Made by a program: the position numbers and the translations under genes. DNA of 45,301 bases from Gammaproteobacteria bacterium (lineage in GTDB: Bacteria; Pseudomonadota; Gammaproteobacteria; SZUA-229), in NCBI GenBank assembly GCA_022712755.1, contig JAFLJY010000279.1, forward strand, positions 1 to 45,301, in the 5' to 3' direction. The notes under the pieces are model-generated. The model was not told the DNA's origin. It ran no database searches and saw only the letters and a list, made by a program, of their open reading frames with translations. Positions 5,034 to 43,211 of this stretch are shown here, piece by piece. The stretch's first letter is position 1. Every line of letters begins with the position of its first letter.

Positions 5034-5142
5034 TCATTTCCATCCTTAGGTTCGTTAATCGCACCGCCTTCCTGGCTCTTTGTGCCATAATTGCAAACAT
5101 GGCCGTCCATCCATGGACATAACAGCACGTTCCTGTGCCACT
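5034..5142. repeat. Hairpin-unit repeat element, intergenic copy (head + one 64-nt unit + tail)
   Basis: Head TCATTTCCATCCTTAGGTTCGTTAA, unit TCGCACCGCC...GTCCATCCATGGACATAA, tail CAGCACGTTCCTGTGCCACT. It is near-identical to 18139-18399, which lies inside the mshN-like gene. Confidence 0.85.
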
Positions 5143-11154: not shown

Positions 11155-11161
11155 CGCTCGC

Positions 11162-11581: not shown

Positions 11582-11586
11582 GTTTT

Positions 11587-13807: not shown

Positions 13808-13812
13808 TAGTG

Positions 13813-15021
13813 CTATATTTTCACTCCGGCAACCGCGTCATACACTGGACCCAATACTGCCATCATTATCCACATCATAATGCCGCCCAATATAACGGTA
13901 AGTATTGGCAATATTGCCGGTTCGATTTTATCAATCGATTCTTTCACTTCCCGGTTATAAAAATAACTAACATTCAATAAAGCATCATCCATCGCACCGG
14001 TGTCTTCGCCCACTTTTAACATACGCACAATCATTGATGGGAACACACCAACTGCCTCAAAACTTTTGCTTATGATCGTGCCTTCTGAAATGCTGGCTCT
14101 GGCTTCTTTGATTGAGGCTTCAAGCACCAGGTTATCAACCATATCTTCTGATATTTTTAATGCATCTAACACTGTTATGCCTGCGCTATACATCATGGCA
14201 AAGTAATTAGCGAACCGTGCCAGTTTTATTTTTGTCATTAAGGGGCCAAAAATCCAAAAATTTAACTTTAGCCCGTCAAAATAATATTTAACCCGACTGT
14301 TGTTTTTTGCCAGCATTTTTAAACCAAATATCAGTACAAAAGGCAGGCTAAAAATTATGTACCAGTAGTCTACAAATATGTCTGAGACCACAATAAGAAC
14401 TTTTGTGTGCGTTGGAATTTCTGTACCCAGGTTTTTAATAAACGGCAACATCTGCGGCATTAAATACATCATTAAAAAAGAAACCACCAGCAAAACAATG
14501 ACAGAGACAATTGCCGGATATATCATTATTTTTTTTGTCTGTGAAACCAGCTCGTCCTGCCAGCGTATGGTTTCAGCAAGGTCGTTTAATACCACCGCTA
14601 ATTGTCCTGTCTCCTCACCAACGCGAACCAGGGTGACATACACTTTATCGAATATTTCCGGATGTTCGGCCAGTGCTAATGACAAAGTTTTACCGCCTTC
14701 AATATCATCAATAACGGTTTGTAACACATCGGTAAAATGACTGTATTCAATGCTGTCGCGAATATCTTTCAAACTGTCAATTAATGGTACGCCTGATTTT
14801 ATTAGTTGCTCTATATGAAAGGTAAAGTTGATCAACTCTCGCCGGCTGATACTTTTGCTGCGAAAACTTATTTTTGCCGCTTTATGTTGTTCTTTATAAC
14901 TTAATAAATCAAAACCCATGGTGCTCAGGCGTTTTTCCAGCTCCATGGGGTTACTTGCAACCATAGTATCGTTGCGAATTTTGCCTTTAGCATCAATCGT
15001 TCTGAATTTATAATCTGGCAC
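13813..15021 (-). CDS. mshG: Type IV filament platform protein (GspF/PilC family), MshG-like
   Basis: 402 aa with duplicated T2SSF-type repeats and 3 TM helices. GTG start preceded by an AGGAAAG Shine-Dalgarno sequence. Confidence 0.88.
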   Translation of the reverse strand: MPDYKFRTIDAKGKIRNDTMVASNPMELEKRLSTMGFDLLSYKEQHKAAKISFRSKSISRRELINFTFHIEQLIKSGVPLIDSLKDIRDSIEYSHFTDVLQTVIDDIEGGKTLSLALAEHPEIFDKVYVTLVRVGEETGQLAVVLNDLAETIRWQDELVSQTKKIMIYPAIVSVIVLLVVSFLMMYLMPQMLPFIKNLGTEIPTHTKVLIVVSDIFVDYWYIIFSLPFVLIFGLKMLAKNNSRVKYYFDGLKLNFWIFGPLMTKIKLARFANYFAMMYSAGITVLDALKISEDMVDNLVLEASIKEARASISEGTIISKSFEAVGVFPSMIVRMLKVGEDTGAMDDALLNVSYFYNREVKESIDKIEPAILPILTVILGGIMMWIMMAVLGPVYDAVAGVKI

Positions 15022-15063
15022 GGGGCTTTCCTAAATAGGACTTTCCTAAGTAATGCATCCCAA

Positions 15064-16791: not shown

Positions 16792-18518
16792 TGGCTCGCT
16801 TTTATCGGCTTGCTTTTATCGGCTAATAGCCTGGACAATTCACTAATGCGCTTTTTCACAGCTTCACGTGAGAAACTACTCTGATTGCTTTTAGACTTAA
16901 GCAAACTCGCTTCATAAAATTTAACTGCTTGCTGTTGTTTGCCCAACTGATCCAAACTCACCGCAAGATTAAAAACATAATCTGCACTTTCATTATTATG
17001 TTGCCAGGCATTAAAATAATATTGTTGTGCAGATTTCCAGTTATTCTGCTGCGCATAAATATTACCCAGTGCAAAATTAAGGTGATGCGCATTCGGGTTC
17101 TTCTGTAGTACAGATAGTAAATATTCTTTATCAGCAGGCGAAGATTGCTTATCAGGCAAATTTGACAGTGCTGCCAGTGCAGCTATCGCAATGGAATCAC
17201 GAGGATCCAGTTCTAATAGTGTTAAATAAATATTCTGTGCTAGCTGATGATTTTTTTCGATAACCGCTATCGCAGCCAACCCTAGCAATGCGTCCCGGTT
17301 GTTTTCTTCGAGTAATAAAACAGATTGATATAATGTTGCGGCTTCACCATAGCGGGCATTTTCATAAGCCAACCAGGCTGTGTCGAGCTGTTCTCCAACA
17401 GGATCAGCCTTTTTTGTTTTTTGTATTGAGACTGCGGATGCTGTGGCTTTTGATGCTGAGACTATTGGTGTTGCGGCTTTATCGCTTGCTAATTTATTTT
17501 TGGCGATCGTATCGGCGTGACTATCTGCCTGCTGTTTCGGGATCGAAGTTGCCTGACTCACCACCGAGTTATCCGCCTGGTTAGTCGCTTGAGTAATAGA
17601 TTGTTCTGCAATAAGTTGCTGCTTTGCAAGCAATACTTTTTCTTCAAGATCGGCATCACTCACCAGGTTACGAATAATTTCTGATTTTACAGGTATTGTT
17701 TCATCGTTTGTTTTAGAACGCATAGCCTGCATTGCAATCTGGTGCTTGCGTTCTAACAGTCTAATTTCTTCCTGCATGTCTTTATAATAAAACATGCCGC
17801 CAGAAACCAGTACGCCGAGGCTAATAATTAAAATGCTGAAAACCAGGGCTCTTCTACCTTTTTTTACTTCACGGTTGGTTTTATATATCAGCATTGATAA
17901 GGCTTCGTCTGACAGGCTTTCGCCACTGTAGCCGTTGCCGTTATTTTTTTTCTCTAAACTTAATCCTTCTGTTTCTATGCTTTTACCGTCATTAAAATGA
18001 GCCTTTTCTAAATGACTATGATTATAGATTTCATCCTCATCAAGCATTAACTCTTCATTGCCATCCTGTCTATCATCCATGCCCTGCAAACTTAATTCTG
18101 CAGTCGCCAGAATCGCTTCATCACTTGCCCGGGTTTTATCATTTGCATCCTTAGGTTCGTTAATCGCACCGTCTTCCTGGCTCTTTGCGAAATACCGTCC
18201 ATCCATGGACATAACCGCACCGCCTTCCTGGCTCTTTGCGCCACTATGTAAACATCGCCGTCCATCCATGGACATAATCGCACCGCCATCCGTGGCTCCT
18301 TGCGAAATACCGTCCTTCCTGGACATAATCGCACCGCCATCCGTGGCTCCTTGCGAAATACCGTCCTTCCTGGACATAACAGCACGTCCGTGTGTCACTG
18401 CTCTCTGCTCAGACATTGATGAAATTTCGTTTATTTCATCCGAACCTGCCTGTTCAAGCTGCAACGCTTTTTGTTTATCGTCCGCCGCTTTTTTCAGGGC
18501 ATCCAGTAGTAAACTCAC
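16788..18518 (-). CDS. mshN: TPR-repeat bitopic assembly protein, MshN-like, carrying an in-frame repeat insertion
   Basis: 576 aa. N-terminus MSLLLDALKKA..., TM ALVFSILIISLGVLVSGGMFYY (about residues 225-245), and C-terminal TPR repeats. Its stop overlaps the mshE start by 4 nt. Confidence 0.7.
   Translation of the reverse strand: MSLLLDALKKAADDKQKALQLEQAGSDEINEISSMSEQRAVTHGRAVMSRKDGISQGATDGGAIMSRKDGISQGATDGGAIMSMDGRRCLHSGAKSQEGGAVMSMDGRYFAKSQEDGAINEPKDANDKTRASDEAILATAELSLQGMDDRQDGNEELMLDEDEIYNHSHLEKAHFNDGKSIETEGLSLEKKNNGNGYSGESLSDEALSMLIYKTNREVKKGRRALVFSILIISLGVLVSGGMFYYKDMQEEIRLLERKHQIAMQAMRSKTNDETIPVKSEIIRNLVSDADLEEKVLLAKQQLIAEQSITQATNQADNSVVSQATSIPKQQADSHADTIAKNKLASDKAATPIVSASKATASAVSIQKTKKADPVGEQLDTAWLAYENARYGEAATLYQSVLLLEENNRDALLGLAAIAVIEKNHQLAQNIYLTLLELDPRDSIAIAALAALSNLPDKQSSPADKEYLLSVLQKNPNAHHLNFALGNIYAQQNNWKSAQQYYFNAWQHNNESADYVFNLAVSLDQLGKQQQAVKFYEASLLKSKSNQSSFSREAVKKRISELSRLLADKSKPIKASQ
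18139..18399. repeat. Hairpin-unit repeat element, amplified intragenic copy (head + 4 tandem units of 51/63/51/51 nt + tail)
   Basis: Units occupy 18164-18214, 18215-18277, 18278-18328 and 18329-18379, and the last two are identical. The head and tail match 5034-5142. The total length is 261 nt, or 87 codons. Confidence 0.9.
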
Positions 18519-18553
18519 TATAATAAACTCATGATTTTGTCTTATGCCTTATT

Positions 18554-20245
18554 TTAGGGCGAGTCTACGGCAAGATTATTTGATGTTTCCTGCTGCAGGT
18601 CTTCTAACAAATATTTTTTATAATCTGCTAAATCGCCATCAAGACTGGCATCTTGCATAACCACCGGACGAATAAAAATAACCAGTTCAGATTTAATATA
18701 TTCTTCATCAGTAAAAGAAAACAAAGCACCTAAAAATGGAATGCTGGATAAAATGGGCACACCACGATTTTCTTTATTGATTTGATCCTGCATCAAACCA
18801 CCGATAACAGCGGTTTCTCCATTATTGATTTTTAACATGGTTTCAATTTCCCTAACCTGAATAACGGGTATCTGGCTAACCACGCCCTGCTCCGCCAGTA
18901 GCGGATTCGGGTCATTTACAAAACGTATAATTCTTGAAATAGTGGGTCGTACATTCATGGTTACGACTTGCTCTTCATCAATATAGGGCGTGACCGCCAT
19001 AACAAAACCAACTGGGACTGTATTTACCGTTGTGTCTACCGTAGTCAATGCATCTGTGTTCTGATTACCGGGAACAACATTGACATCGATATTGAAATAT
19101 ACTTCATTATCGACCACTTTTAGTATTGCGGTCTGGTTGTTTAATGCCATTACTTTCGGGCTTGATAACACTTTGACGTCGCCAAAGGTTTCTAATGCTT
19201 TTAAAGTAATATTCAGTGGGTTGCCATTAATGCTTCCGGTTGTTGCCAGCTGAAAGAAGGGTGAAGCACCCAGAGCGCCTCCGATAACATCCTGTATACC
19301 CCCCTTTGCTAATACCGTCTGACCACCGACAGTTGTGGTTTCACTAATTAGAGACCAGTCGATACCGGCCTGGTAATGATCACTTAAACGCACTTCGGCA
19401 ACGGTAGCTTCTATTAATACCTGACGCTGTACATTACCAACAACCCGGTCAATAAAGTTTTTAATGGTTTTATGCATCTTTGCTGTGGCGCGCACGGCAA
19501 TAACGCCGGCTTCACGGTTGACGATAATATTGTTACCCGTTGCCATACGAGAACCTGAGCCACCCTTTATTTCCTCGCCTAATAAACCCGCTATATTGCG
19601 CGACAGGGTTGTCCAGAATTCATTAACACTCTTGTTTTCAATTTCTGAACTGGCTTTATTGTCACTACCGCTGCTGCCACCACCACCTTTCTTTTGTATG
19701 CCTGTACTGGTGGCGCCGATCTCTGTTGATACACTTACGCTACCGCTACTGGAGCGGTCGATATTTAAATAATTGATATTGTAGCTGTGCAGATACGGCT
19801 TATCTGCCATCACTTTCAGCGTATTACCTTCAACAAAATAGACAATATCAGTCTGCGACGCAATTCGGTCTAAAATTTTCGGCAAGGTCTGATCTATCGC
19901 ATTCATCGTGATCTTGCCTTTGATATTGTTATCAATATCCAGATTCAGTTCGGCATCTCTTGCCATGGAAAATAATAATTCACGAATCGGCACCTGATTG
20001 ACGACAACGGTATAGGTTTCCAGTTTTTCGCGTTTTCCGGGGCGCGGCAAAACCGGCACCCGGGTTACTGGCAATGGGATATTTGTTTTTTTCTCTGCTG
20101 CTTCATCAACTTTTGATTTGATATGCCCTTCTGAAATTGTCGGTGGATTGGTAGCACCACAGGCGACAACAAGAACGGCTGTCGCTACCGCGAAACTATA
20201 TTGTAAGATTTGTTTACTAAATTCAGGTTTTTTTATTTTTATCAT
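18554..20245 (-). CDS. mshL: Lipoprotein secretin, MshL-like
   Basis: 563 aa with a lipobox LVVAC, secretin N-domains and a C-terminal secretin core (...GVPILSSIPFLGALF). Confidence 0.9.
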   Translation of the reverse strand: MIKIKKPEFSKQILQYSFAVATAVLVVACGATNPPTISEGHIKSKVDEAAEKKTNIPLPVTRVPVLPRPGKREKLETYTVVVNQVPIRELLFSMARDAELNLDIDNNIKGKITMNAIDQTLPKILDRIASQTDIVYFVEGNTLKVMADKPYLHSYNINYLNIDRSSSGSVSVSTEIGATSTGIQKKGGGGSSGSDNKASSEIENKSVNEFWTTLSRNIAGLLGEEIKGGSGSRMATGNNIIVNREAGVIAVRATAKMHKTIKNFIDRVVGNVQRQVLIEATVAEVRLSDHYQAGIDWSLISETTTVGGQTVLAKGGIQDVIGGALGASPFFQLATTGSINGNPLNITLKALETFGDVKVLSSPKVMALNNQTAILKVVDNEVYFNIDVNVVPGNQNTDALTTVDTTVNTVPVGFVMAVTPYIDEEQVVTMNVRPTISRIIRFVNDPNPLLAEQGVVSQIPVIQVREIETMLKINNGETAVIGGLMQDQINKENRGVPILSSIPFLGALFSFTDEEYIKSELVIFIRPVVMQDASLDGDLADYKKYLLEDLQQETSNNLAVDSP

Positions 20246-20290
20246 TTTATGGGTTTGCTAAATTCAGGTTTAACCAACGTAGTCGAAATT

Positions 20291-21784
20291 TTATTGTGTT
20301 GCTGCGGTCATTTTCACCTGGTCTTTTTTTAATGTGCTGATGCGACGTAAATAAGGATCACTTGCTTTTAAAGAAGAAGGTAGCGTTCTCAGCGTTTCAA
20401 TAGCCTTATCGCGAGTGTCAAAATCGTTGTACAGTACGCCGTACCATGCACGCCCGTTTATTACTGTTTCATAGAGGTAAACCCGGGTAAAATCAAGCGT
20501 TGCGGGGGTATCGCGTAGAAATGCTTCGACTTTATCCGCATCAATGGTTCGCGCCAAAAATAGCTGAATGCTATAGTGATTGCCTGCCGTCTCATGCAGC
20601 CATTGTCTGGTTATTTCCAGGCGCTCGGTTATGCTGTCAGGTGCAACTTTTTTCTGCTCATTATTATTTTTTACTGGCGGATGTTGAATACTCACTGCCG
20701 GCGAAACCGCTGCTTGTTGTGCGTTAGTCACAGGCATCTGTTTTAATGGTTGCAGCGCTACTGAGTCCGGCTTTTTCGGGTCATTATTTATTCGCTCTGA
20801 CTTTACTGATGCCGGCTTTATTAATGTTGGCTTTATTAAGGCTGTCTCCGCCTGGCTGAAAATACCCAGATGGTTACTTCCCATATAATAACCGCTAGTT
20901 AACGCAAGGATGACTAAAATAAAACCACCAGCAAGGTATAAGTTATTCTTATTCTGGCTAACTTTGTGGCCGATTTTATTAAATTCGCTATCCAGCGCAG
21001 CTGACTTTATGTGTGACGGGGTGACGGTATGACTGCCTTCTGAATATGCCGCCATTAATGATTTGTCGGCAATAATATTTATTCGCCGTGTTAACCCATC
21101 AGAATATTTTTTTACTACACCTGCCGTTTTTTTATTAAATATATCCGGACCTTTATAGCCGACTGCACGTAAGCGGAAATTCAGATACTGCAAGGTATCC
21201 TCCGGCGCAAACGGTGATAAATTAAAGCTATGGGTAATACGTTCTTTTAGCTGGCGTATATGTGGCTGGGCAAGTTTTTCATCCAGTTCAGGCTGACCAA
21301 ACAATACCATCTGTAATAATTTGTTTTCATCTGTTTCCAGATTGCTTAACAGCCGAATCTCTTCCAGCGTTTCTATCGGCATGCTCTGCGCTTCTTCAAC
21401 AAACAGGACCACCTGTCGATTGTCAGCATGTTTTTTTAACAGATACGTCTGTATCTGCTGCATGATAGTTACTTTATTCGTCTCACCCTTTACATCGAGA
21501 TGTAATTCATGTGCGATGACTTGCAGAATATTGTCGGGGGACAGGCTTGGATTGGCGATGTAAATGACATCAACATTACCGGATAATCTGACTTCCAGCA
21601 TGCGGCACAACATGGTTTTACCACTACCCACTTCACCGACAACTTTAATGATACCTTCGCCGCTGTTAATGGCATACATTAATGCCTCTAACGCCGCACC
21701 GCGCTGACTGCCTTCAAAAAACAGACTGGTATCCGGGGTAATTTTAAAAGGCGGGCGACTTAGGCCAAAAAACTCCTGGTACAT
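20291..21784 (-). CDS. mshM: ExeA/MshM-type AAA+ ATPase with TM and C-terminal SPOR-like domain
   Basis: 497 aa. N-terminus MYQEFFGLSRPPF, Walker A GEVGSGKTM, Walker B VLFVEEAQ, and a TM at about residues 283-303. The C-terminus (YSIQLF...WYGVLYNDF) is SPOR-like. Confidence 0.85.
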   Translation of the reverse strand: MYQEFFGLSRPPFKITPDTSLFFEGSQRGAALEALMYAINSGEGIIKVVGEVGSGKTMLCRMLEVRLSGNVDVIYIANPSLSPDNILQVIAHELHLDVKGETNKVTIMQQIQTYLLKKHADNRQVVLFVEEAQSMPIETLEEIRLLSNLETDENKLLQMVLFGQPELDEKLAQPHIRQLKERITHSFNLSPFAPEDTLQYLNFRLRAVGYKGPDIFNKKTAGVVKKYSDGLTRRINIIADKSLMAAYSEGSHTVTPSHIKSAALDSEFNKIGHKVSQNKNNLYLAGGFILVILALTSGYYMGSNHLGIFSQAETALIKPTLIKPASVKSERINNDPKKPDSVALQPLKQMPVTNAQQAAVSPAVSIQHPPVKNNNEQKKVAPDSITERLEITRQWLHETAGNHYSIQLFLARTIDADKVEAFLRDTPATLDFTRVYLYETVINGRAWYGVLYNDFDTRDKAIETLRTLPSSLKASDPYLRRISTLKKDQVKMTAATQ

Positions 21785-21844: not shown

Positions 21845-22004
21845 GGAGCTTGTCCGCGAATAGAAATCGTAGCGAGGGGAAGCTGATTTGAGTCAGATTT
21901 TTTCATTATTTGAGGAGAATATAGGTATATTTAACGAAAATAATGGAAAAATCTGGCCAAATTCAGCTTTTCCGCAGTAGGTTCTCTATTCTCGGACAAG
22001 CTCC
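21845..22004. repeat. Long imperfect inverted repeat (about 66-nt arms, 28-nt loop), MITE-like
   Basis: Arm 21845-21910 (GGAGCTTGTCCGCGAATAG...) pairs with the reverse complement of 21939-22004 at most positions. It lies between the response-regulator stop and the mshM-like start. Confidence 0.8.
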
Positions 22005-23446
22005 TAGGTTCCATGTTTTTGCACACGACTATATAATGTTGTACGATTAATCTTTAATGCACTTGCCGCTTTACTAACATTGTTGTCGTGCATTTCCAGG
22101 GCGATTCGAATGCAGCGACTTTCAATCTCGTCGATAAGTTTATCCAGATCAAATTCATCTGCACGTATTTTCTGCATAATCATTTCATCACTCACTGAAG
22201 TCGCATTTTCTACCAGTTTGGTGGCCGACAACTGAGTCTCCAGCTCATCCATTAATTGTGCTTTATTAACACTTTGCCCTGGGTATTTTGTACCCAGACG
22301 GATAACGATATTCCTTAACTCGCGCACGTTGCCCGGATAATCATATTGCTGCCAAAGTTCTCTGGCACTTTCATCAAGGACAAAAGGCGAAACCGTATCT
22401 GCATACATTTCAATAAAGGTGTTTAACAACAGAAAAACATCATCACCTCTTAAACTGAGTGATGGCAGCTGAATATTCAGGATGCTTAGCCGATGATATA
22501 AATCATTTCTGAAGTTGCCGTTTTTCACTTCTTCAGACAGGTTTTTGTTGGTTGCCGCCAGTATTCTTGCCTGCGAATGCAGCTCTCTGGTTTCACCAAC
22601 GCGATAAAACTCGCCACTCTCTATAACACGCAGGAGTTTACCCTGTAACGGCAACGGTAACTCACCAATTTCATCCAGTAGCAAGGTGCCTTTGCCAACC
22701 TCCATAAAAAAGCCCTTATGCGCCTGTGTCGCACCGGTAAACGCACCTTTGGCATGACCAAATAATTGTGCCTCCAGTAAATCCGGCGCTATCGCTGCAC
22801 AGTTAATCGCCATATAAGGCTCACCACTGCGTTTACTGTTCTCGTGTAAAGCGCGGGCAACCAGCTCTTTTCCAGTGCCGGATGCGCCTTCAAGCAACAC
22901 TGGGAAAGGGGAGTCGGCAAATTGTGAAATCTGATTGTTCACCATTTGCATAGCAATACTATCGCCAATAATCGAAACCGTTTTTTGCGCATCACGCTGC
23001 TGGTCAATTTCGTGTAGACGCTGATGATGCTGCAAACGTGCCAGCAACAGCTCAGGTTCTGCCGGTTTGGCAATAAAATCAACCGCACCGATTGTAAGTG
23101 CGTGCTGGATATTTACGTCATTATCCTGACCCGATAATACCAGGACTTTCATGTTCGGCTGCAATGACAATAACTCACGGATAAGGGCAAAACCTTCATC
23201 CGGTTTATGTGGATAGGGCGGCAGGCCAAGATCTATCAAAGCCAAACCGGGCAGACCCTTATTGTCATTAATTTTCTGGATTGCCTGGTGGCGTGACTCA
23301 GCAGTGATGAGATTATATTGTTTGCGCAGCATAAAACCCAAACCTTCAATAATCAAAGGATCATCATCTACCAGTAATAAACAGGCGGGTGTTTTTACTG
23401 AAGCGCCAGCATCGGCCGCTATGTCTTGTTGCTCATTTTCTTGCAT
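22004..23446 (-). CDS. Sigma-54-dependent response regulator (PrsR-like receiver signature)
   Basis: Receiver LLVDDDPLI...IDLGLPPYPHKPDEGFALIRELL, AAA+ core GASGTGKE with GAFTGA, and a C-terminal HTH. The start is placed at MQENEQQ (ATG 23446) with a GGGGA Shine-Dalgarno sequence. The ORF-track start at 23524 is probably too long. Confidence 0.9.
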   Translation of the reverse strand: MQENEQQDIAADAGASVKTPACLLLVDDDPLIIEGLGFMLRKQYNLITAESRHQAIQKINDNKGLPGLALIDLGLPPYPHKPDEGFALIRELLSLQPNMKVLVLSGQDNDVNIQHALTIGAVDFIAKPAEPELLLARLQHHQRLHEIDQQRDAQKTVSIIGDSIAMQMVNNQISQFADSPFPVLLEGASGTGKELVARALHENSKRSGEPYMAINCAAIAPDLLEAQLFGHAKGAFTGATQAHKGFFMEVGKGTLLLDEIGELPLPLQGKLLRVIESGEFYRVGETRELHSQARILAATNKNLSEEVKNGNFRNDLYHRLSILNIQLPSLSLRGDDVFLLLNTFIEMYADTVSPFVLDESARELWQQYDYPGNVRELRNIVIRLGTKYPGQSVNKAQLMDELETQLSATKLVENATSVSDEMIMQKIRADEFDLDKLIDEIESRCIRIALEMHDNNVSKAASALKINRTTLYSRVQKHGT

Positions 23447-23466
23447 CCAATTTCCCCAAAAAACTT

Positions 23467-23482
23467 TGTCATAATTATGACA
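23467..23482. promoter_or_regulatory. Perfect 16-bp palindrome TGTCATAATTATGACA (operator-like)
   Basis: It lies 21 nt upstream of the response-regulator ATG and just downstream of an extended -10-like TGCTATATA on the minus strand. This is the divergent trmL / regulator region. Confidence 0.35.
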
Positions 23483-23569
23483 CTTTATATAGCAGAAATG
23501 TTGGCATGTTTTATCATGTCGCACTGAATTAACGGATTATTTACAAACTTGTATGCTTAAATAGGCGAT

Positions 23570-31532: not shown

Positions 31533-31641
31533 CAACAGTCCTTAATATACGTAAATTTATCCAAATCACACCATGGCATACGGATGTGCCTGATGGTGAA
31601 TATCCGCCTTCGGTCAGTTAGCGGACATACAAAAAACAATA

Positions 31642-31829
31642 TTTTTCCGCAAATGCACGCGAATAAACGCAAAGAAAAACCTTTTAAATTTTTATACCGT
31701 AGCCTGTAGGTTGGGGTGAGGTACGAACCCCAACGGGTTGTGTGTGGTTATTTGTTGGGGTTCGTACCTCACCCCAACCTACATGAAAAAGTTTTCATTT
31801 GCGTTTATTCGCGTGCATTTGCGGAAAAA
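31642..31829. repeat. Nested palindrome: perfect 32-nt inverted repeat enclosing a family-1 REPIN (31706-31782)
   Basis: The outer arm TTTTTCCGCAAATGCACGCGAATAAACGCAAA (31642-31673) is the exact reverse complement of 31798-31829. The inner part is GTAGGTTGGGGTGAGGTACGAACCCCAAC x2 inverted. Confidence 0.9.
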
Positions 31830-32019
31830 TTAAAAAGTTTTTGACTGTCCGCTATGTGTCGAAAGCAGTCACCCCATATCTGACACTCTCTGTCAGATGG
31901 TCACTCTTACGCATTCATGCGTTCGCGACATGACGTACAGGGACGTACTAATGCCGAGGTGGCATGGATGCCAATGAGCGGCGAATGCTTCCATGCACGT
32001 CAATGCAAACCTATCCATT

Positions 32020-37130: not shown

Positions 37131-37157
37131 TGAATCTTTTTTCACCCTATTGACGTA
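37131..37157 (+). promoter_or_regulatory. ECF-type promoter P1: ATGAATC-N17-CGTA
   Basis: TGAATC at 37131-37136 and CGTA at 37154-37157, upstream of the ECF sigma gene. The motif and spacing are the same as at 38913-38939. Confidence 0.45.
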
Positions 37158-37259
37158 TATATTTGTATGGACGCGCAGACGCTCGCAATATATGCTTGTA
37201 TCTTATTGAATTTAAGTAACAAATAAATATTTGTTAAAAGTGTCAAATGAAATATTCGG

Positions 37260-38012
37260 ATGCCGATTATGGCTGAACTACTTTTAAAACCACGAAAAAC
37301 ATACTCAGCGGCGTGTATATCGCGGTTTTCTGTAAAAGACATCTGCGATATAATTTCAGTTATGCCTGCCATTGAAGAAAATCGTGAACTGCGAAATTTG
37401 CAATCAGAATCGATGCAATTGAACCAGCAACTGCGTGTATTCCTGAACAGGATTGTAAACAAAGACAAGCCGGCGTTTGAGCGGTTTTACGATAGCACCA
37501 TCCAGTTATGTTTTAGTCAGGCACTCAGGGTTACAAAAAAACAGGATATTGCAGAAGAAGTTGTTAGTGATGTCTATATGCAAGTCTGGAACAGAGCAGC
37601 AAGTTACGATGACACGCGCAGTAGTGTCATGACATGGCTGATGATGATATGCCGAAGTCGGGCACTGGATGCATTAAGACAGCGTAAAAATCAGCAGGTG
37701 AAAGAATCGGTAAACATTGATGCGATCGTTGAACCCTCTAGCGATGATAATCCGCAGGATATCTTGAGTGCGATACAGGAAGGGTGTTTTTTACACGACG
37801 TGGTTTCCCAGTTAAAACCACAGCAACAACAGTTGTTATCGTTGGCTTATTTTAAAGGGCTGACACATAGTGAAATTGCTAACCACACAAATATGCCTTT
37901 AGGGACTGTTAAATCACAGATTCGCAGGGCGATTATCATGCTAAAAAAATTAATAGATGAACAGGGATTACTTGCTAGCGATAAAAACGGTGGCGGAGAA
38001 TCTTATGACTAA
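37260..38012 (+). CDS. ECF (group 4) RNA polymerase sigma factor
   Basis: Region 2 is AFERFYDST...EEVVSDVYMQVW. Region 4 is LLSLAYFKGLTHSEIANHTNMPLGTVKSQIRRA. The longest ORF is given here, but ATGs at 37362 or 37413 fit ECF domain boundaries better. Confidence 0.85.
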   Translation: MPIMAELLLKPRKTYSAACISRFSVKDICDIISVMPAIEENRELRNLQSESMQLNQQLRVFLNRIVNKDKPAFERFYDSTIQLCFSQALRVTKKQDIAEEVVSDVYMQVWNRAASYDDTRSSVMTWLMMICRSRALDALRQRKNQQVKESVNIDAIVEPSSDDNPQDILSAIQEGCFLHDVVSQLKPQQQQLLSLAYFKGLTHSEIANHTNMPLGTVKSQIRRAIIMLKKLIDEQGLLASDKNGGGESYD

Positions 38013-38508
38013 AAACGATAGCAAAATAATTATTCAGGACGTTGTGCTCAGCGAGGACGAGCTGATGTTGTTAAGTACAGAACCCGCTGTTATGGATGAA
38101 ATCGATGTGAATTCGAAACAGATGAAATCACTACGTTCACGTGTGATGTCGCAGGTCGATGAGCAGTTATCAGCGGATACTAGTGATTTGCTAACGGTCA
38201 GAGCAGATAATGGTGACTGGCAACAGATCGGTGAATCTATAAGAAAAAAAATATTGTATGTCGATAAGCAAAAAGGGGTGGTGTCTTACCTGTTACGGGT
38301 CGATCCGGGTGCTGAAGACGCTTCACATTTGCATTCTTCAGATGAATATTGTCTGGTACTCGAGGGTGATATTTCATTTGGTGATATCCACCTGTATGCG
38401 GGCGATTTTCATCTCGCACCTAAAGGCAGTCGGCATGATAGAGCTTATACCGAGCATGGTGCATTGCTTTATATTCAGACAGGTATCCAGCAGCAGATGA
38501 GTCTTTAA
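38005..38508 (+). CDS. ChrR-like cupin-domain protein (putative anti-sigma partner)
   Basis: 167 aa counted from the ATG at 38005 (GGAGA Shine-Dalgarno sequence), which overlaps the sigma stop codon. C-terminal cupin SHLHSSDEYCLVLEGDISFG...H. No HxxxCxxC zinc anti-sigma motif and no TM. Confidence 0.7.
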   Translation: MTKNDSKIIIQDVVLSEDELMLLSTEPAVMDEIDVNSKQMKSLRSRVMSQVDEQLSADTSDLLTVRADNGDWQQIGESIRKKILYVDKQKGVVSYLLRVDPGAEDASHLHSSDEYCLVLEGDISFGDIHLYAGDFHLAPKGSRHDRAYTEHGALLYIQTGIQQQMSL

Positions 38509-38528
38509 TAATTTTAATCGTTTCTAAC

Positions 38529-38800
38529 TTAAGGGCATCTCTAAAAATAGCTTGCGACCTCTGCGCGATCTGAAACTTAGCATTTACCAGTCATAGTTAA
38601 TCATAGCATGTGGGCTTTATTTTCAAGCGTTGCAAAACGCAAGATTTTGTTTCAGGCTGCGCCCTACTGGGCTTTACCCCTTGCCCAGACTCGGCGTTAT
38701 GTTTTTTTACCGTACAATAAGTATGCTTTCAAAAACATGCCTTGATTCTGAACAAGGGGTAAAGCCAGAGGACACAACCTATTTTTAGAGATGACCTTAA
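38529..38800. repeat. MITE-like element with 21-bp terminal inverted repeats and an internal 36-nt inverted repeat
   Basis: Terminal repeats are TTAAGGGCATCTCTAAAAATAG (38529-38550) and CTATTTTTAGAGATGACCTTAA (38779-38800). Inner arms are 38670-38706 and 38731-38766. There is no ORF. Confidence 0.75.
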
Positions 38801-38821
38801 TTATTTATTTATCAATTTTTC

Positions 38822-38848
38822 ACGGTGGCTTAGGCCGCCGTTTTTTTT
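38822..38848 (+). terminator. Rho-independent terminator
   Basis: Stem ACGGTGGC / GCCGCCGT (8 bp, one G-U pair), loop TTAG, followed by T8. Confidence 0.8.
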
Positions 38849-38912
38849 CTCTAAAAATTAGTTGGTTTTGCTTCCTTTTGAATACTGCGCCCGGATTATT
38901 TTTTTAAAAATA

Positions 38913-38939
38913 TGAATCCGTTCTCATAATATTTTCGTA
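38913..38939 (+). promoter_or_regulatory. ECF-type promoter P2: ATGAATC-N17-CGTA
   Basis: TGAATC at 38913-38918 and CGTA at 38936-38939, about 55 nt upstream of the DUF4331 ATG. Confidence 0.5.
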
Positions 38940-38993
38940 AATAAGATTGACAGAAAAACATTGTTAATTGTTTTACATACGCAGGAGAATATT

Positions 38994-40487
38994 ATGAAGA
39001 AAAAAATTTTCACCACAAGTATATTGGCGACAGCCATCGCATGTTCGACCTTTGCCTTTTCCCTAAGTGTAGATGCATCGAGTCATAGAGAAGCGCCTTT
39101 TATCACGCAAAATCCTAAGGTTGATGGCACTGATTTTTATATGTTTCGTAGTTATGAAACCGGACGTGAAGAATATGTAACTTTGGTTGCAAACTATAAC
39201 CCACTGCAGGCAAGTTATGGTGGTCCAAACTATTTCACCATGGATCCAAATGCGTTGTATGAGATCCATGTCGATAATAATGGTGATGCTATCGAAGATA
39301 TTACTTTCCAGTTCCAGTTTAAAAACACATTGTCAAATAACGGCAAAGGCATCACTGTGCAGGTAAATGGAAAAGACGTGGCGGTATCGTTACGTAATAT
39401 TACCGAGGTCACTTCGCTTACTCCAGAAAGTGTTAATGATGCCGAATCATATAGCCTGACAGTGGTAAATGGTGATAGACGTAGCGGAATAAAAAGCTCT
39501 GCGATCAACATCAACAGCGGCGGTTCTACAATCTTTGCAAAGCCTTTTGATAATGTCGGTAACAAAACTTTCAATAGTGAGAGTTATGATGTTTATGCAA
39601 ATACTTTTATCTATGATGTGAATTTTCCTTCATGTCCCGCAGATGCGCAGCAGGGTAAGGTTTTTGTTGGCCAACGCAAAGAATCATTTGCCGTGAACCT
39701 GGGTGAGGTATTTGATCTGTTTAATTCAAATCCTTTAGGTGCTGTTGATGCAGAGATAAATATTATTGGTGATGAAAATATCACAACATTTGCGCTCGAG
39801 ATCCCTATTGCCTGTCTAACCAATAACGGCGCTGTGGATGTTATTGGTGCCTGGACAACTGCGAGCAAACGCCAGGTGCAGATACTTGACCCTACGCCAG
39901 ACTATGATCAGCCTGCACTAGAAAGAGGAGCATGGACACAGGTATCACGTCTTGGTATGCCGCTGGTTAACGAGCTGGTTATCGGTTTACCTGACAAAAA
40001 TCTGTTTAACAGCAGTGAGCCAAAAGGTGATGCTCAGTTTCTTGATTATGTCACTAACCCGACCTTTCCTGTTATTTTGAATGCATTGTTTGGTGTTAGC
40101 CCACCAACAGTTGCTGGTCGTCCTGATCTAGTTGCAACATTTCTTACCGGTTTGAGCGTAGTGAATAACAATGGCAGTGTTGGTGAGATGCAACGATTGA
40201 ATGTAACTGTCGCGCCTACAGCTAAAGCAAGTCAGAACAATATCGGTGTTGCTGCCGGTGATAACGCAGGCTTCCCAAATGGTCGTCGCCCGGGTGATGA
40301 TGTGGTTGATATAACCACCCGTGTTGCGATGGGAGTTTTATGCCATCTAAATTTGGGCTTATGTGATCCTGCGGATGCAGAGAGTGGCACATTGGAGTAT
40401 ACCGATGGAGCGATACAAAACGCTACACAGTTTGATGATGTGTTTCCGTACCTGACAACACCAGTTGCCGGTTCACCAGCTAATTAA
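38994..40487 (+). CDS. Secreted DUF4331-family protein
   Basis: The ATG at 38994 has an AGGAGA Shine-Dalgarno sequence, followed by a signal peptide. The mature N-terminus is SSHREAPFITQNPKVDGTDFYMF, and the C-terminal motif GFPNGRRPGDDVVD is as I recall for DUF4331. Confidence 0.8.
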   Translation: MKKKIFTTSILATAIACSTFAFSLSVDASSHREAPFITQNPKVDGTDFYMFRSYETGREEYVTLVANYNPLQASYGGPNYFTMDPNALYEIHVDNNGDAIEDITFQFQFKNTLSNNGKGITVQVNGKDVAVSLRNITEVTSLTPESVNDAESYSLTVVNGDRRSGIKSSAININSGGSTIFAKPFDNVGNKTFNSESYDVYANTFIYDVNFPSCPADAQQGKVFVGQRKESFAVNLGEVFDLFNSNPLGAVDAEINIIGDENITTFALEIPIACLTNNGAVDVIGAWTTASKRQVQILDPTPDYDQPALERGAWTQVSRLGMPLVNELVIGLPDKNLFNSSEPKGDAQFLDYVTNPTFPVILNALFGVSPPTVAGRPDLVATFLTGLSVVNNNGSVGEMQRLNVTVAPTAKASQNNIGVAAGDNAGFPNGRRPGDDVVDITTRVAMGVLCHLNLGLCDPADAESGTLEYTDGAIQNATQFDDVFPYLTTPVAGSPAN

Positions 40488-40501
40488 CCTGGAGAGTAAT
40501 C

Positions 40502-40780
40502 ATGAACTCTAAATACTCATTTATTATAATTGTTTGCAGCGGTCTTATGCTTAGTGCATGCCATGATAACAACAGTGCAGGTGGGGATGGTGTGACAACA
40601 CAGCCAGAAAATGAACTGACCGTGTTTGGCAACTTGTCAGCAGATGATGAGCCACTAGCGATCACTAACAAACTGGAACAGGACATACAGGCTGTATTTG
40701 GCGATGCTGATAATAAGGCTGTTGATGTTATCGTAGGTGATAATGTTCAAAGTGTTATCGACAGAGCCGGTTTAAATTGA
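40502..40780 (+). CDS. Small lipoprotein, hypothetical
   Basis: 92 aa with a lipobox LSAC and an acidic mature part. It is tightly linked between the DUF4331 and TPR genes. Confidence 0.6.
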   Translation: MNSKYSFIIIVCSGLMLSACHDNNSAGGDGVTTQPENELTVFGNLSADDEPLAITNKLEQDIQAVFGDADNKAVDVIVGDNVQSVIDRAGLN

Positions 40781-42075
40781 AACGGATGTACGGAGCAAGG
40801 GTAAAAAGTATGAAAATTAATCATGCTAAATCTACTCAGGACGAAAAGTGGGGAAGGCGTCGCCTTCTCCATTACCTGTTACTTTTTTATATAGTAACTT
40901 TGATGATTTTTTTTCTGCTGGTTAAAGGGGCAATGGCTGAACCGTATCTGCCAAAGAGCGAAACTCAGATCCTGGCCTACCTGCCAACAAAATTAACACC
41001 CTTGTCAAATCGGATAAAAAAACTTGAGAGCAGACTGATATCCTATTCAGCTGATAACAGACAGATGGAAGAATTACAGGAAGCCTTGCTTAAGGCATAT
41101 CTGCAACAGGCAAGAGTGGCAGCCGACATGCGTTATCTCAGTTATGCTCAAAAACGACTGGATCAATGGTTACAGAAAACACCTGATTCAGAAAAAGCCA
41201 GGTTATTAGATGCACAGATAAAACAATACAATCACCATTTCGACGATGCCATAGTGGTGCTGACTGCATTGTTGAAAGATTATCCTAATAACAGTGAAGC
41301 CTGGTCGCTACTGTCAAATCTGCAATTGTTAACAGGTAATTATGTTGCAGCAAGTGCAAGCTGTAAACAACTGTCATTAAGCAGCAACCTGGCAGAGTTA
41401 GTTATTTGTCAGAGCAATATCAAAATAAGAACCGGATTGTTAAATGAAGCCTACACGTTGTTAAGTGTGTTATTACCCGTTATTGATAATATGCCGATTG
41501 AACAACAATTATGGCTGGTTACAAGCCTGGCAGAAATAACTATACAACAGGACAAAAAAAACCTTGCCGAGCGTTATCTAAAACAGGCGGTTACATTGGC
41601 TGCTAATAATGATATCAATGATGCTTACCTGACACGTGTTTACACCGATTTTCTAATTCAACATAGCAGATTCAAACTGGCGTTTGAATTAACTAAAAAT
41701 AATAAAGGGGATGCTGGGTTGATGATACGCTCAGCAGTACTCGCAAAAAAAACGGGTGATGACCAGCTGTATTATGATAACAAAGCGGCATTAATACAAA
41801 TATTTGATGTAGAAAAAAGACGACAGAAAAACCGGCACCTACGTGAGCTAGCATTGTTTACATTGTTACTACTTGATGATGCGACTGCAGCGTTAACTAT
41901 TGCGAAACAGAACTGGCTTCTTCAAAAAGAACCCGAGGATGCGCGAATCTTGATGAAATCGGCGCTAACTGTCGGTGATCATGAACAAATACACTGGGTG
42001 GAAGCCGCTATTGAAAGGACAGGCCTGATCGATCTTCGTCTGGATAAAGTACGATTAGGCGAATCAATAATATGA
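40777..42075 (+). CDS. Membrane-anchored TPR-repeat protein
   Basis: One N-terminal TM (LLHYLLLFYIVTLMIFFLLV) followed by TPR-like helical repeats. The start is uncertain (TTG 40777, ATG 40786 or ATG 40810). Its stop overlaps the next gene by 4 nt. Confidence 0.7.
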   Translation: MKRMYGARVKSMKINHAKSTQDEKWGRRRLLHYLLLFYIVTLMIFFLLVKGAMAEPYLPKSETQILAYLPTKLTPLSNRIKKLESRLISYSADNRQMEELQEALLKAYLQQARVAADMRYLSYAQKRLDQWLQKTPDSEKARLLDAQIKQYNHHFDDAIVVLTALLKDYPNNSEAWSLLSNLQLLTGNYVAASASCKQLSLSSNLAELVICQSNIKIRTGLLNEAYTLLSVLLPVIDNMPIEQQLWLVTSLAEITIQQDKKNLAERYLKQAVTLAANNDINDAYLTRVYTDFLIQHSRFKLAFELTKNNKGDAGLMIRSAVLAKKTGDDQLYYDNKAALIQIFDVEKRRQKNRHLRELALFTLLLLDDATAALTIAKQNWLLQKEPEDARILMKSALTVGDHEQIHWVEAAIERTGLIDLRLDKVRLGESII

Positions 42076-43211
42076 GAAATATTATTATATTAATTCTATG
42101 TTTTTATAGTCAGTCGATCCTGGCACACAAAACTAGTGACAGTTATTTGAATATTGTTACATCAAACCAACACAACAGTATCACCTGGTCGATAGCAGTG
42201 ATTGATTTAGAAGTTGCTGTCGGTTTGGATATGGATGCAGATAACAGGATAACCTGGGCAGAAGTCATTAATAGAAGATCGGCTATAGAAGCTTATGTGC
42301 TCAGCCGTTTTTCTTTGTACCATATGAAAGACCAGCAGAAACACATTTGCGCTGTCGATAATGAAAGTTTACTTGTCGATGATAAGAGAGATGGAAGTTA
42401 TCTTGTTTTTAATCTGGCCACTCCCTGTCTTAATGATCTAGCCGTAAATGATTTTATTCTGGAGTATCAATTGTTATTTGATATTGACAGCAATCATCGA
42501 GGATTGATATTAATCGAGTCAGAAGAAAGTACGATAACACGGGTAGCAAGCCCAAAAAACCACATATTTAAAGTACAAAATAGCAATGTTTCAGTGATGT
42601 TGATATTGTATGATTATGTACTTGAAGGAATTTGGCATATTCTAATTGGTCTGGACCATATACTTTTTCTTTTGGCATTATTACTTCCAGCAGTGTTACT
42701 TTATAAAGATGGATTGTGGCAACGCCGTGAAAATATTCGCAGTTGCTTGTTACCGATATTGAAGATCGTCACCGCGTTTACCGTTGCACACTCTGTCACT
42801 TTAACATTGTCTGTCTTAGAAATAGTGCAATTGCCGCCGCAACTGGTAGAAACCATCATTGCTATCACCGTGCTGCTTACCTGTCTGCATAGTATCAAAC
42901 CGGTTCTTCAGGATTCTATGTGGCAAATTGCTTTCTTCTTCGGCCTGATTCACGGTTTTGGTTTTGCCAATGTCTTACTTGATCTTGGCCTGGCAGAAAC
43001 GGCGTTACTGGTGTCGCTGCTAGGTTTTAATGTCGGCGTCGAAATTGGTCAATTATTTATCGTCTGTGTATTTATGGTTTTTGCGACAGTAGTTCATCGT
43101 TACTGGTGGTATCGCACAATAATATTTAAAGGTGGAATTTCGGCTACGGCGGCGCTTTCCTGTATCTGGATAATCGAACGGATGCTCAATTATGAGATCC
43201 TTGTCATTTAG
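42072..43211 (+). CDS. HupE/UreJ-family membrane protein with N-terminal periplasmic domain
   Basis: 379 aa: signal peptide, a soluble domain of about 170 aa, then 6 TM helices with HILIGLDHILFLLALLLP and GLIHGFGFANVL motifs. Confidence 0.8.
   Translation: MRNIIILILCFYSQSILAHKTSDSYLNIVTSNQHNSITWSIAVIDLEVAVGLDMDADNRITWAEVINRRSAIEAYVLSRFSLYHMKDQQKHICAVDNESLLVDDKRDGSYLVFNLATPCLNDLAVNDFILEYQLLFDIDSNHRGLILIESEESTITRVASPKNHIFKVQNSNVSVMLILYDYVLEGIWHILIGLDHILFLLALLLPAVLLYKDGLWQRRENIRSCLLPILKIVTAFTVAHSVTLTLSVLEIVQLPPQLVETIIAITVLLTCLHSIKPVLQDSMWQIAFFFGLIHGFGFANVLLDLGLAETALLVSLLGFNVGVEIGQLFIVCVFMVFATVVHRYWWYRTIIFKGGISATAALSCIWIIERMLNYEILVI

Follow-up and report, generated by a model that had tools for sequence, protein, structure and literature searches.

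A conserved SigK-like sigma factor and cupin pair with a DUF4331-lipoprotein-TPR-HupE/UreJ-2 operon: a candidate periplasmic metal-acquisition module in a gammaproteobacterium

What purpose is served when a secreted protein of the DUF4331 family is encoded behind a dedicated sigma factor, together with a small lipoprotein, a tetratricopeptide repeat (TPR) protein and a HupE/UreJ-type permease? This question is raised by a six-gene cassette at positions 37131 to 43211 of contig JAFLJY010000279.1 (assembly GCA_022712755.1) from a Gammaproteobacteria bacterium of the SZUA-229 lineage, the entire 45,301-nucleotide (nt) sequence of which was analyzed and is referred to here as the window. The cassette consists of the genes for an extracytoplasmic function (ECF) sigma factor and a cupin protein, followed by a four-gene operon. 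On balance, we favor the view that it specifies an autoregulated ECF circuit through which a divalent transition metal, probably Cu(II) or Ni(II), would be captured in the periplasm and imported. The features of the locus are as follows (coordinates refer to the window, and + denotes the forward strand).

37131..37157, +: predicted ECF-type promoter P1, 5′ of the sigma factor gene (-35 TGAATC, 17-nt spacer, -10 CGTA)
37269..38012, +: ECF sigma factor gene (Sigma70_r2, r4_2 and TIGR02937), with its core from approximately 37413 and a lineage-specific N-terminal extension of approximately 48 amino acids (aa)
38005..38508, +: gene for a 167-aa cytoplasmic ChrR-type cupin protein (Cupin_7), a putative anti-sigma factor/sensor, coupled to the sigma factor gene
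38529..38800, no strand assigned: 272-nt hairpin element with 35-nt terminal inverted repeats, between both units (fold z-score of -9.4)
38822..38851, +: predicted intrinsic terminator of the sigma factor-cupin unit (8-bp GC-rich stem followed by a T-run)
38913..38939, +: predicted ECF-type promoter P2 of the four-gene operon (-35 TGAATCC, 17-nt spacer counted from TGAATC, -10 CGTA)
38994..40487, +: gene for a DUF4331 protein of 497 aa, predicted to be secreted (PF14224 at 450 bits)
40502..40780, +: gene for an acidic lipoprotein of 92 aa (lipobox LSAC), the conserved partner of DUF4331
40777..42075, +: gene for a predicted periplasmic TPR protein (signal peptide followed by a TPR superhelix; TPR_19)
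42072..43211, +: gene for a 379-aa protein uniting an anglerase-like domain with a HupE/UreJ-2 permease (PF13795; mature His-1, beta-sandwich and EF-hand-like loop)

The six co-directional open reading frames (ORFs) form two tight units, as had been described in a first-pass annotation made from the sequence alone, and the deposited gene calls concur (497, 92 and 379 aa, plus 167 aa for the cupin protein). All ORFs, domains and coordinates of that description were confirmed apart from the start of the sigma factor gene, which had been placed at 37260 and is probably located at 37269, or possibly at 37413. The stop codon of the sigma factor gene (TAA, 38010 to 38012) and the start codon of the cupin gene (ATG, 38005), the latter with a GGAGA Shine-Dalgarno sequence upstream, overlap by 8 nt. 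A 4-nt overlap (TTGA) joins the lipoprotein and TPR genes, and a further 4-nt overlap joins the TPR and permease genes at 42072 to 42075, while 14 nt separate the DUF4331 and lipoprotein genes; the overlaps within the sigma factor-cupin pair and between the last two genes had both been anticipated in the earlier description. The two units are set apart by the terminator, which is retained in the closest relatives of the window cassette in the comparison set (loci L081 and L082) with compensatory changes in the stem, and by the 272-nt hairpin element. The latter also contains an inner inverted repeat, is present as a single copy in the window and is missing from the orthologous spacer of L081 and L082, which identifies it as a lineage-specific insertion; it looks like a MITE-type insertion and is probably not a functional part of the cassette. 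Searches against Rfam returned no match in the whole window at gathering thresholds and none in the regulatory region, including the hairpin element, at an E value of ≤1.

Control of the operon by an ECF sigma factor, as proposed in the first-pass annotation, is supported by the promoters. The pattern TGAATC-N17-CGTA has exactly two matches in the 45-kb window (37131 to 37157 and 38913 to 38939; 0.01 expected), one per unit, with no further intergenic copy, and position 37131, at which the stretch under study begins, is the first base of the candidate -35 element. As the pattern was taken from these two window sites, it was checked on independent orthologous loci, for which 80 genome loci around DUF4331 homologs of 50 to 70% identity, representing six phyla and 2.86 Mb in total, served as the comparison set. 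The strict form applied to these relatives (TG[AC]ATC-N16-19-CGTA) produced 59 matches, 31 (+2) of which are situated on the coding strand between -300 and +150 of a DUF4331 start, and 10 of which lie directly 5′ of a linked sigma factor gene. When the pattern was relaxed to allow one mismatch within a 390-nt upstream window, 47 of the 79 loci had it 5′ of DUF4331, where 1.4 would be expected, and at a consistent distance to the start codon. Both copies are conserved in motif and spacing in L081 and L082. Approximately half of the loci in which no sigma factor gene occurs within 10 kb have nonetheless kept the motif, which indicates that regulon membership is retained in trans. The position of P1 5′ of the sigma factor gene would imply autoregulation, and a promoter that is common to the sigma factor and DUF4331 genes and conserved across phyla argues for ECF control of the operon. 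The same promoter type is present 5′ of TonB-dependent receptor genes in three relatives (L047, L050 and L073).

Further genes were observed behind this motif. In L077 (6742 to 7344, minus strand), it precedes a gene for a fasciclin-domain protein, which echoes the mpt83-sigK-rskA cassette of mycobacteria and Yersinia. In Ampullimonas aquatilis (L013, 8584 to 9750), it precedes genes for a Ferritin_2/DUF4439 protein and a cytochrome c, directly 5′ of DUF4331.

Conservation of the module itself was assessed by scoring gene presence in the 80 loci with tblastn searches using the window proteins, which detected the TPR protein in 48 loci, both halves of the HupE-like protein in 45, the sigma factor in 43 and the cupin protein in 17. 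Colinearity was counted only in the 65 loci whose sequence extends at least 3.2 kb downstream, among which the order DUF4331-TPR-HupE/UreJ-2 is maintained in 38 and rearranged in 4; overall, the order of the DUF4331, acidic lipoprotein, TPR and HupE_UreJ_2 genes is kept in approximately two thirds of the loci with enough downstream sequence. This arrangement extends across Gamma-, Beta- and Alphaproteobacteria, Nitrospirota, Acidobacteriota, Myxococcota, Campylobacterota, Planctomycetota and Cyanobacteria. When the search was started from the permease (four loci), the same order was recovered in a Lacipirellulaceae genome, a cyanobacterium and another genome of 7.5 Mb, the fourth locus harboring a TPR-like gene and the permease gene only, and the 4-nt overlap of the TPR and permease genes was present in all four. 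Conserved co-occurrence of DUF4331 and HupE-like genes, on which the earlier functional proposal had been made to depend, was thus found from either side (38 plus 4 of 65 loci and three of four, respectively). L081 harbors the same six-gene cassette amid different flanking genes. Based on the pattern of gene co-occurrence across loci, the module appears to have a nested structure, consisting of a sigma/anti-sigma pair, a DUF4331-lipoprotein pair and a TPR-HupE/UreJ-2 pair.

The genes that recur in the neighborhood of the module encode TonB-dependent receptors, DUF4198 proteins and classic HupE/UreJ permeases, the last of which adjoin the module in 18 related loci; DUF4198 is described as a Ni-binding protein (PMC12537917). 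No recurrent genes for efflux systems (resistance-nodulation-division [RND] transporters, P-type ATPases or CopA/B) were observed in the neighbor clusters. Two individual loci differ in their composition. In an Aphanocapsa metagenome-assembled genome (L084, 1781 to 4124), the operon is preceded by genes for a BlaI/CopY-family repressor (Penicillinase_R) and a Peptidase_M56 membrane protein, which stand in place of an ECF sigma factor gene. In Acinetobacter tjernbergiae (L063, 11492 to 15115), genes for DUF4331, the lipoprotein, the TPR protein and a TonB-dependent receptor occur without that of the HupE/UreJ-2 permease, and the TPR protein displays a His-rich mature N terminus (HPKHHHEE...).

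The permease matches HupE_UreJ_2 (PF13795) at 154.5 bits versus 24.5 across residues 182 to 342 and carries approximately 180 extra N-terminal residues, while the model of the classic HupE/UreJ family (PF04955) scored 19.7 bits, under its cutoff of 23. In an AlphaFold2 model with a predicted local distance difference test (pLDDT) score of 86.6, the N-terminal portion forms a beta-sandwich with a helical insert, followed by a helical membrane domain. Foldseek searches with the N-terminal domain retrieved ZrgA and PA4063 (E value of 3e-5; TM score of 0.6) and the Cu-bound Ang-1 domain 9gce (E value of 8e-4; TM score of 0.53). An AxA|His cleavage site, which would render His19 the first residue of the mature protein (His-1), is invariant in 45 of 45 metagenomic homologs and universal in the genome loci. 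Further hallmarks of the family are a loop resembling an EF-hand (DxDxDxxITWxE), another invariant His and, within the membrane domain, His, Asp and Glu residues that are likewise invariant.

These properties correspond to those of the anglerases Ang-1 and Ang-2, which were described in October 2025 (Franco Cairo et al., Nat Commun; PMC12537917; PDB 9GCE) as periplasmic domains with a mature His-1, forming a mono-histidine brace, that are fused to PF13795 permeases and are proposed to fish metal ions into the permease channel. RbAng-1a was reported to bind Cu with a dissociation constant of 74 nM and Ni with one of 220 nM, while Zn destabilized the Ang-1 domain (PMC12537917). In common with these proteins, the window permease possesses a signal peptide followed by an invariant His-1, a beta-sandwich whose strands 2 and 3 are separated by a helical insert, and a short linker to a C-terminal PF13795 permease with conserved membrane His, Asp and Glu residues. 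Judged from its predicted structure, it is considered to belong to the anglerase architectural and structural class. The window clade nevertheless lacks HMMER similarity to RbAng-1a, in that neither phmmer with the N-terminal domain nor hmmsearch with the family profile produced a genuine match among PDB sequences, 9gce being missed at E values of up to 10, and the structural alignment of the N-terminal domain with 9gce corresponds to 10% identity. It also differs from Ang-1 and Ang-2 in having many more invariant residues, the second His and the EF-hand-like loop included, and may, therefore, form a distinct anglerase subclass. The first-pass annotation had correctly reported a 379-aa HupE/UreJ-type protein with an extra domain, an architecture that has been characterized since the 2025 description (PMC12537917).

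ZrgA of Vibrio cholerae and PA4063 of Pseudomonas aeruginosa are free-standing proteins of Zur-regulated ABC-type zinc importers and possess His-rich loops, whereas the window domain starts with His-1, forms part of a larger protein that ends in a HupE/UreJ-2 permease and is placed under apparent ECF control. Classic HupE/UreJ Ni/Co permeases (PF04955) share with the window protein a multi-helix inner-membrane layout, a signal peptide, a mature N-terminal His and first-helix His/Asp motifs; the window protein, by contrast, belongs to PF13795 and possesses an extra periplasmic domain of approximately 160 aa.

The first gene of the operon encodes a full-length DUF4331 protein, which matches PF14224 at 450 bits across profile positions 1 to 421 of 421. 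The family comprises 6,051 clusters at 50% identity and is found in at least eight phyla. In agreement with the earlier statement that DUF4331 has no assigned function, literature searches by the names DUF4331, PF14224, HupE_UreJ_2 and PF13795 retrieved nothing, the DUF4331 profile had no match among PDB sequences, and a Foldseek search of the PDB with an AlphaFold2 model (pLDDT of 73; predicted TM score of 0.76) returned no structural neighbor (best E value of 0.05; TM score of 0.13). The mature protein of approximately 470 aa contains many invariant Asp, Asn, Glu, His and Arg residues and four conserved Cys residues.

The most telling feature of DUF4331 is located at its N terminus. In 80 of 81 homologs, a signal peptide ending in a small residue, usually Ala (AxA), is followed by S-S-H-R-E-A-P, and among 150 diverse representatives of the family, a segment resembling a signal peptide is followed by X-X-H-x-[DE]-[AGS]-P in 112 (SSH in 105, ASH in 4, and SGH, AGH and LDH in one each), the remaining 38 being mostly N-terminal fragments or near variants (SDH, RDH and GGH). 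A short subfamily of 346 to 357 aa in planctomycetes (L083, 4409 to 5482; L085, 4619 to 5659) shows the corresponding sequences AIA|ADHLDAP and VQA|ADHLDAP. The residues before the His thus vary, and include Asp and Arg, while the spacing of two residues is fixed; as Asp and Arg are not tolerated at position -1 of a signal peptidase site, this pattern is most consistently read as cleavage after Ala, judged by the -3/-1 rule only, which would leave a mature NH2-X-X-His terminus of the amino-terminal Cu(II)- and Ni(II)-binding (ATCUN) type. Such motifs require a free N terminus, a His at position 3 and no Pro at position 2, the metal, Cu(II) or Ni(II), being held in a square-planar 4N site. The mature window protein is accordingly predicted to begin with Ser-Ser-His, an ATCUN-type Cu/Ni motif. 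In L083, a divergently encoded 291-aa DUF4437/cupin protein was also observed near DUF4331.

The 92-aa protein, the length of which agrees with the deposited gene call, was confirmed as a lipoprotein by a lipobox (MNSKYSFIIIVCSGLMLSAC) that fits the pattern [LVI][ASTVI][GAS]C (L-S-A-C); it had no Pfam match. In at least 56 of 81 loci, the ORF immediately after DUF4331 contains a lipobox and specifies a mature protein of 50 to 90 aa with a mean net charge of about -8, although it diverges too fast to be detected by tblastn. These lipoproteins usually contain two P-[ED]-[DE]-T-E-P repeats, with a variant C terminus in the window and in other Thiotrichales. The assignment of the third product as a TPR protein was upheld by a TPR_19 match (PF14559; 30 bits versus a cutoff of 25), while its profile matched consensus TPR structures in the PDB at an E value of 3e-25, all matches being generic TPR matches; within the family, His153 and His354 are invariant, and Cys196 and Cys211 are conserved to at least 90%. 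The membrane anchor attributed to it in the first-pass annotation is less plausible than a cleavable signal peptide, in view of an AMA|EP site in the window protein and clear AxA sites in homologs, and the protein is probably soluble in the periplasm. Through the 4-nt overlap, its gene is translationally coupled to that of the permease.

The sigma factor of the first unit matches PF04542 (45.5 bits), PF08281 (49.7 bits) and TIGR02937 (93.8 bits; cutoff of 42.9) and, with regions 2 and 4 only and no region 3 match, conforms to an ECF (group 4) sigma factor. The best subfamily model is that of SigK (NF007228), although its score of 132.5 bits is below the cutoff of 226. The N-terminal extension of approximately 48 aa (37269 to 37412) shows codon-like conservation only in L081 and L082; the notion that it is a general trait of cupin-linked sigma factors was dropped on the grounds of this restricted occurrence. 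Of the 43 loci with a linked sigma factor gene, 17 encode a cupin protein as its downstream partner and 17 encode RskA (PF10099), the other 9 being left unassigned, and cupin and RskA partners alike occur with the full module and the same promoter, their loci having the common motif TG[AC]ATCC-N16-CGTA. An alignment of 35 sigma factors revealed two Cys columns that are filled in all 17 RskA-linked proteins and in none of the 18 cupin-linked ones, the window sigma factor having Val and Leu at these positions. From the description in PMC7509140, these columns are inferred to correspond to Cys133 and Cys183 of Mycobacterium tuberculosis SigK, and the reported association of this pair with canonical RskA (PMC7509140; PMC7826278) matches the present alignment.

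The 167-aa partner contains a cupin domain (PF12973, Cupin_7; 55.3 bits versus a cutoff of 27), and the H-x-H-x3-E...H metal motif is kept in 18 cupin partners, which are 155 to 165 aa in length and have a conserved N-terminal segment of approximately 50 aa. Neither the window protein nor any of the 18 partners contains the HxxxCxxC zinc anti-sigma motif; the ChrR model TIGR02451 reached 30.7 bits (cutoff of 124.5) and covered only positions 64 to 181, that is, the linker and the cupin domain, and NF051881 reached 29 bits (cutoff of 300). The earlier designation of this protein as a ChrR cupin is thus appropriate for its cupin domain and metal ligands, but not in the sense of a canonical ChrR protein. 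A longer homolog from Nitrospiraceae has a recognizable anti-sigma N-terminal domain (E value of 1e-10). Translational coupling, synteny and this domain of the long homolog suggest that the cupin protein may act as the anti-sigma factor of the adjacent sigma factor. The idea that the short N terminus is a remnant of RskA was abandoned, since hhalign against RskA gave a probability of 0.04 and BLASTP of the long form against RskA was empty. The most fitting description of the window pair is that of a SigK-like sigma factor devoid of the cysteines, joined by a minimal cupin partner of the ChrR type.

This pair combines elements of several established systems. It resembles SigK-RskA (ECF18/ECF19) in that SigK is its best subfamily, in that 17 orthologous loci possess RskA and both hallmark cysteines, in the apparent autoregulation of the sigma factor gene and in the fasciclin gene that lies behind the same promoter type in L077 (PMC7509140; PMC7826278). 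It differs in the loss of both cysteines, in a score below the SigK cutoff and in its partner, which is a cytoplasmic cupin rather than the membrane-bound RskA, while its main target would be the DUF4331 operon and not the mpt83/mpt70 fasciclin cassette that accompanies SigK-RskA in Mycobacterium and Yersinia. RpoE-ChrR (ECF11) of Rhodobacter and Caulobacter similarly comprises a sigma factor gene followed by a translationally coupled Cupin_7 gene with His-x-His-x3-Glu...His ligands, but the window cupin protein lacks the N-terminal zinc anti-sigma domain, and the target genes are unrelated. CnrYXH, which governs Ni/Co resistance, and FecIR-type uptake are known ECF-controlled metal systems in which, as appears to be the case here, an ECF sigma factor with a dedicated partner governs envelope metal proteins, and the inclusion of TonB-dependent receptors within the regulon in some relatives of the window system is a further point of likeness to systems of this kind. 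The presumed sensor, however, is of neither the FecR nor the CnrX/CnrY type but a cupin protein located in the cytoplasm, with RskA in its place in other lineages, and the target proteins belong to other families.

Taken together, the anglerase-type His-1 domain, the X-X-His terminus of DUF4331 and the TonB, DUF4198 and HupE neighbors strengthen the case for the periplasmic metal-acquisition role envisaged in the first-pass annotation. We propose that the SigK-like sigma factor and the cupin protein would be transcribed together from P1, and that the cupin protein would hold the sigma factor inactive while sensing a signal, plausibly occupancy of its metal site, through its His3-Glu ligands. 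Upon release, the sigma factor would activate P1 and P2, the latter directing expression of the DUF4331, lipoprotein, TPR and permease genes, for all four of which export of the product is predicted. In the periplasm, DUF4331 would bind Cu(II) or Ni(II) via its N-terminal Ser-Ser-His, the acidic lipoprotein probably acting as a tether and the TPR protein as a scaffold, and the anglerase-type His-1 domain would feed the bound ion into the channel of the HupE/UreJ-2 permease; the outer-membrane step may, in other species, fall to a TonB-dependent receptor under common control. The arrangement of the genes, their domains, the predicted anglerase-type fold and the conservation of module, promoter and N-terminal His motifs are observed, whereas inhibition of the sigma factor by the cupin protein, the choice of metal, inward transport and transfer from protein to protein are inferred. 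A more specific version of this scheme is tentative: DUF4331 could be a periplasmic metallochaperone with a new fold that passes Cu(II) or Ni(II), helped by the lipoprotein and the TPR protein, to the His-1 domain for import, and the cupin protein could be a minimal anti-sigma factor which senses the imported metal in the cytoplasm and so closes a feedback loop, the membrane redox sensor formed by RskA and the cysteine pair having been swapped in evolution for a soluble metal sensor.

Several points weigh against this proposal. Which metal is handled is ambiguous, as the ZrgA/PA4063 fold would suggest Zn, the classic HupE/UreJ and DUF4198 neighbors Ni or Co, Ang-1 Cu over Ni, and the ATCUN motif Cu or Ni. 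Outside the cassette, the window encodes neither a Ni- or Cu-dependent enzyme nor a further metal-related protein by which the metal might be named, and in 14 orthologous loci without the ECF promoter, no riboswitch was found with Rfam, the sole match being one tRNA; no RNA regulator in the window or these loci thus points to the metal. The model of DUF4331 is of moderate confidence only, a few members of the family truly lack the N-terminal His, and within the SSH subfamily, cleavage might alternatively occur after Ser-Ser and give a His-1, although either site leaves a His within three residues of the free amino terminus. The adjacent TPR-HupE/UreJ-2 pair is missing in approximately one third of the loci and the promoter motif in 32 of 79, and a weak sigma-70-like match overlaps P2. 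The regulatory role of the cupin protein is read from synteny, and ChrR models, the motif check and hhalign against RskA revealed no recognizable anti-sigma domain. Moreover, the signal that cupins of the ChrR type are known to sense is singlet oxygen or another stress rather than a shortage of metal.

Such considerations give room to other explanations. ECF sigma factors classically respond to envelope stress, which the first-pass annotation had also listed, and the operon might serve envelope protection, with DUF4331 and the lipoprotein binding excess metal (for example, copper), HupE/UreJ-2 moving it away or signaling, and the sigma factor being induced by excess or damage. Sequestration would be well served by ATCUN and His-1 sites, which bind Cu(II) very tightly, and by a strongly acidic lipoprotein; nevertheless, we regard this as unlikely, given that genes for TonB-dependent receptors, whose function is uptake, lie behind the same promoter, that the neighbors (DUF4198 and classic HupE/UreJ) are of the uptake type and that the neighbor clusters are devoid of recurrent efflux genes. 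Slightly less credence is given to DUF4331 as a secreted or periplasmic metalloenzyme, for which the TPR protein, the lipoprotein and HupE/UreJ-2 would constitute the maturation or metal-insertion machinery. TPR proteins are often maturation chaperones, DUF4331 is large, with many invariant polar residues, four Cys and a fold without a PDB neighbor, and the occurrence of DUF4331 and the lipoprotein without TPR-HupE/UreJ-2 in roughly a third of loci is reminiscent of an enzyme with optional helpers. Domain, profile and structure searches of DUF4331, however, disclosed neither a catalytic motif nor membership of an enzyme family, import is the known function of HupE/UreJ proteins, and a position-specific N-terminal X-X-His suits binding or transfer better than a buried active site.

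Zinc, in place of copper or nickel, would be the substrate if the module were analogous to the Zur-regulated ZrgA/PA4063 systems, zinc-bound forms of which are the best structural matches of the permease N-terminal domain (E value and TM score as given above). This we hold to be quite improbable: Cu(II) and Ni(II) are bound by ATCUN motifs but Zn(II) is not, the His-rich loops of ZrgA and PA4063 are missing from the domain, and regulation appears to be exerted by an ECF sigma factor (no search for a Zur box was made). The invariant His-1 points in the same direction, since the homologous Ang-1 prefers Cu and Ni and is destabilized by Zn (PMC12537917). Least probable of the alternatives is a photo-oxidative or general oxidative stress switch like RpoE-ChrR, in which the operon would form part of a response to reactive oxygen and be unrelated to metal supply. 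The ChrR-type cupin domain with its equivalent, conserved metal ligands and the RskA-linked orthologs with the redox-sensitive SigK cysteine pair (PMC7509140; PMC7826278) would accord with such a switch, yet the cupin protein has no zinc anti-sigma domain, the window sigma factor has lost the cysteine pair, and no target resembles the known RpoE-ChrR targets, all of those found here pointing to the envelope and metals.

If the favored metal-acquisition reading is correct, the module would represent a new copper or nickel acquisition route in Gram-negative bacteria, with a promoter motif that predicts its regulon. Its building blocks have known relatives, namely SigK-RskA, the ChrR cupin, the anglerase-HupE/UreJ-2 permease and ECF-controlled metal systems. 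The searchable literature contains no description of the gene combination, of DUF4331 proteins with their X-X-His terminus, of the partners (acidic lipoprotein and TPR protein), of the conserved promoter, or of the cupin/RskA swap that tracks the loss of the cysteine pair, and a combined search on HupE, ECF, TonB and TPR returned nothing relevant. The cassette is widespread in bacteria, and its last gene alone has been studied previously; the earlier statement that the components had not been characterized together is borne out by these searches, except that the architecture of HupE/UreJ-2 with an N-terminal domain is published by itself (PMC12537917). In that study, the neighbors of anglerase genes are mostly genes of unknown function and DUF4198, IndA-like and PfkB genes; the one appearance of DUF4331 is in a supplementary table, where its count is 2, and TPR and ECF genes are nowhere mentioned (PMC12537917). 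The present module may therefore name "unknown function" partners that the 2025 anglerase study left unnamed, and a conserved, co-regulated setting with an anglerase permease provides DUF4331 with a concrete hypothesis, that of an X-X-His Cu/Ni site which hands metal to the permease. It also constitutes a natural experiment in sigma/anti-sigma evolution, in which the promoter and operon are constant and the sensor is either RskA with the redox cysteine pair or a cupin with neither.

Elsewhere in the window, a cluster resembling those for MSHA/type IV pili was observed on the minus strand (8831 to 21784), encoding N_methyl pilins, T2SSF, T2SSE with MshEN, TPR, secretin and AAA_22 proteins, and flanked by genes for two sigma-54 response regulators (1514 to 3016 and 22004 to 23524); the remaining genes of the window are housekeeping genes. 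Intergenic palindromic repeats resembling repetitive extragenic palindromic (REP) elements occur at 3137 to 3225, 31699 to 31783, 4946 to 5028 and 31641 to 31830. The sequence GTAGGTTGGGGTGAGGCACGAACCCCAAC is present at two distant REP-like sites, a further pair consists of a perfect palindrome of 30 nt, and a 45-nt inverted repeat flanks the second site. Directly 3′ of a sigma-54 activator gene, positions 3012 to 3083 comprise approximately five tandem copies of a 14-nt unit (TTTAAGTTTTAAGT). Direct repeats of 51 to 56 nt, some of them 100% identical and in tandem, lie at 18139 to 18370, at the 5′ end of the TPR ORF of the pilus cluster (16788 to 18518, minus strand), and related copies are found 13 kb away, near 5034 to 5128.

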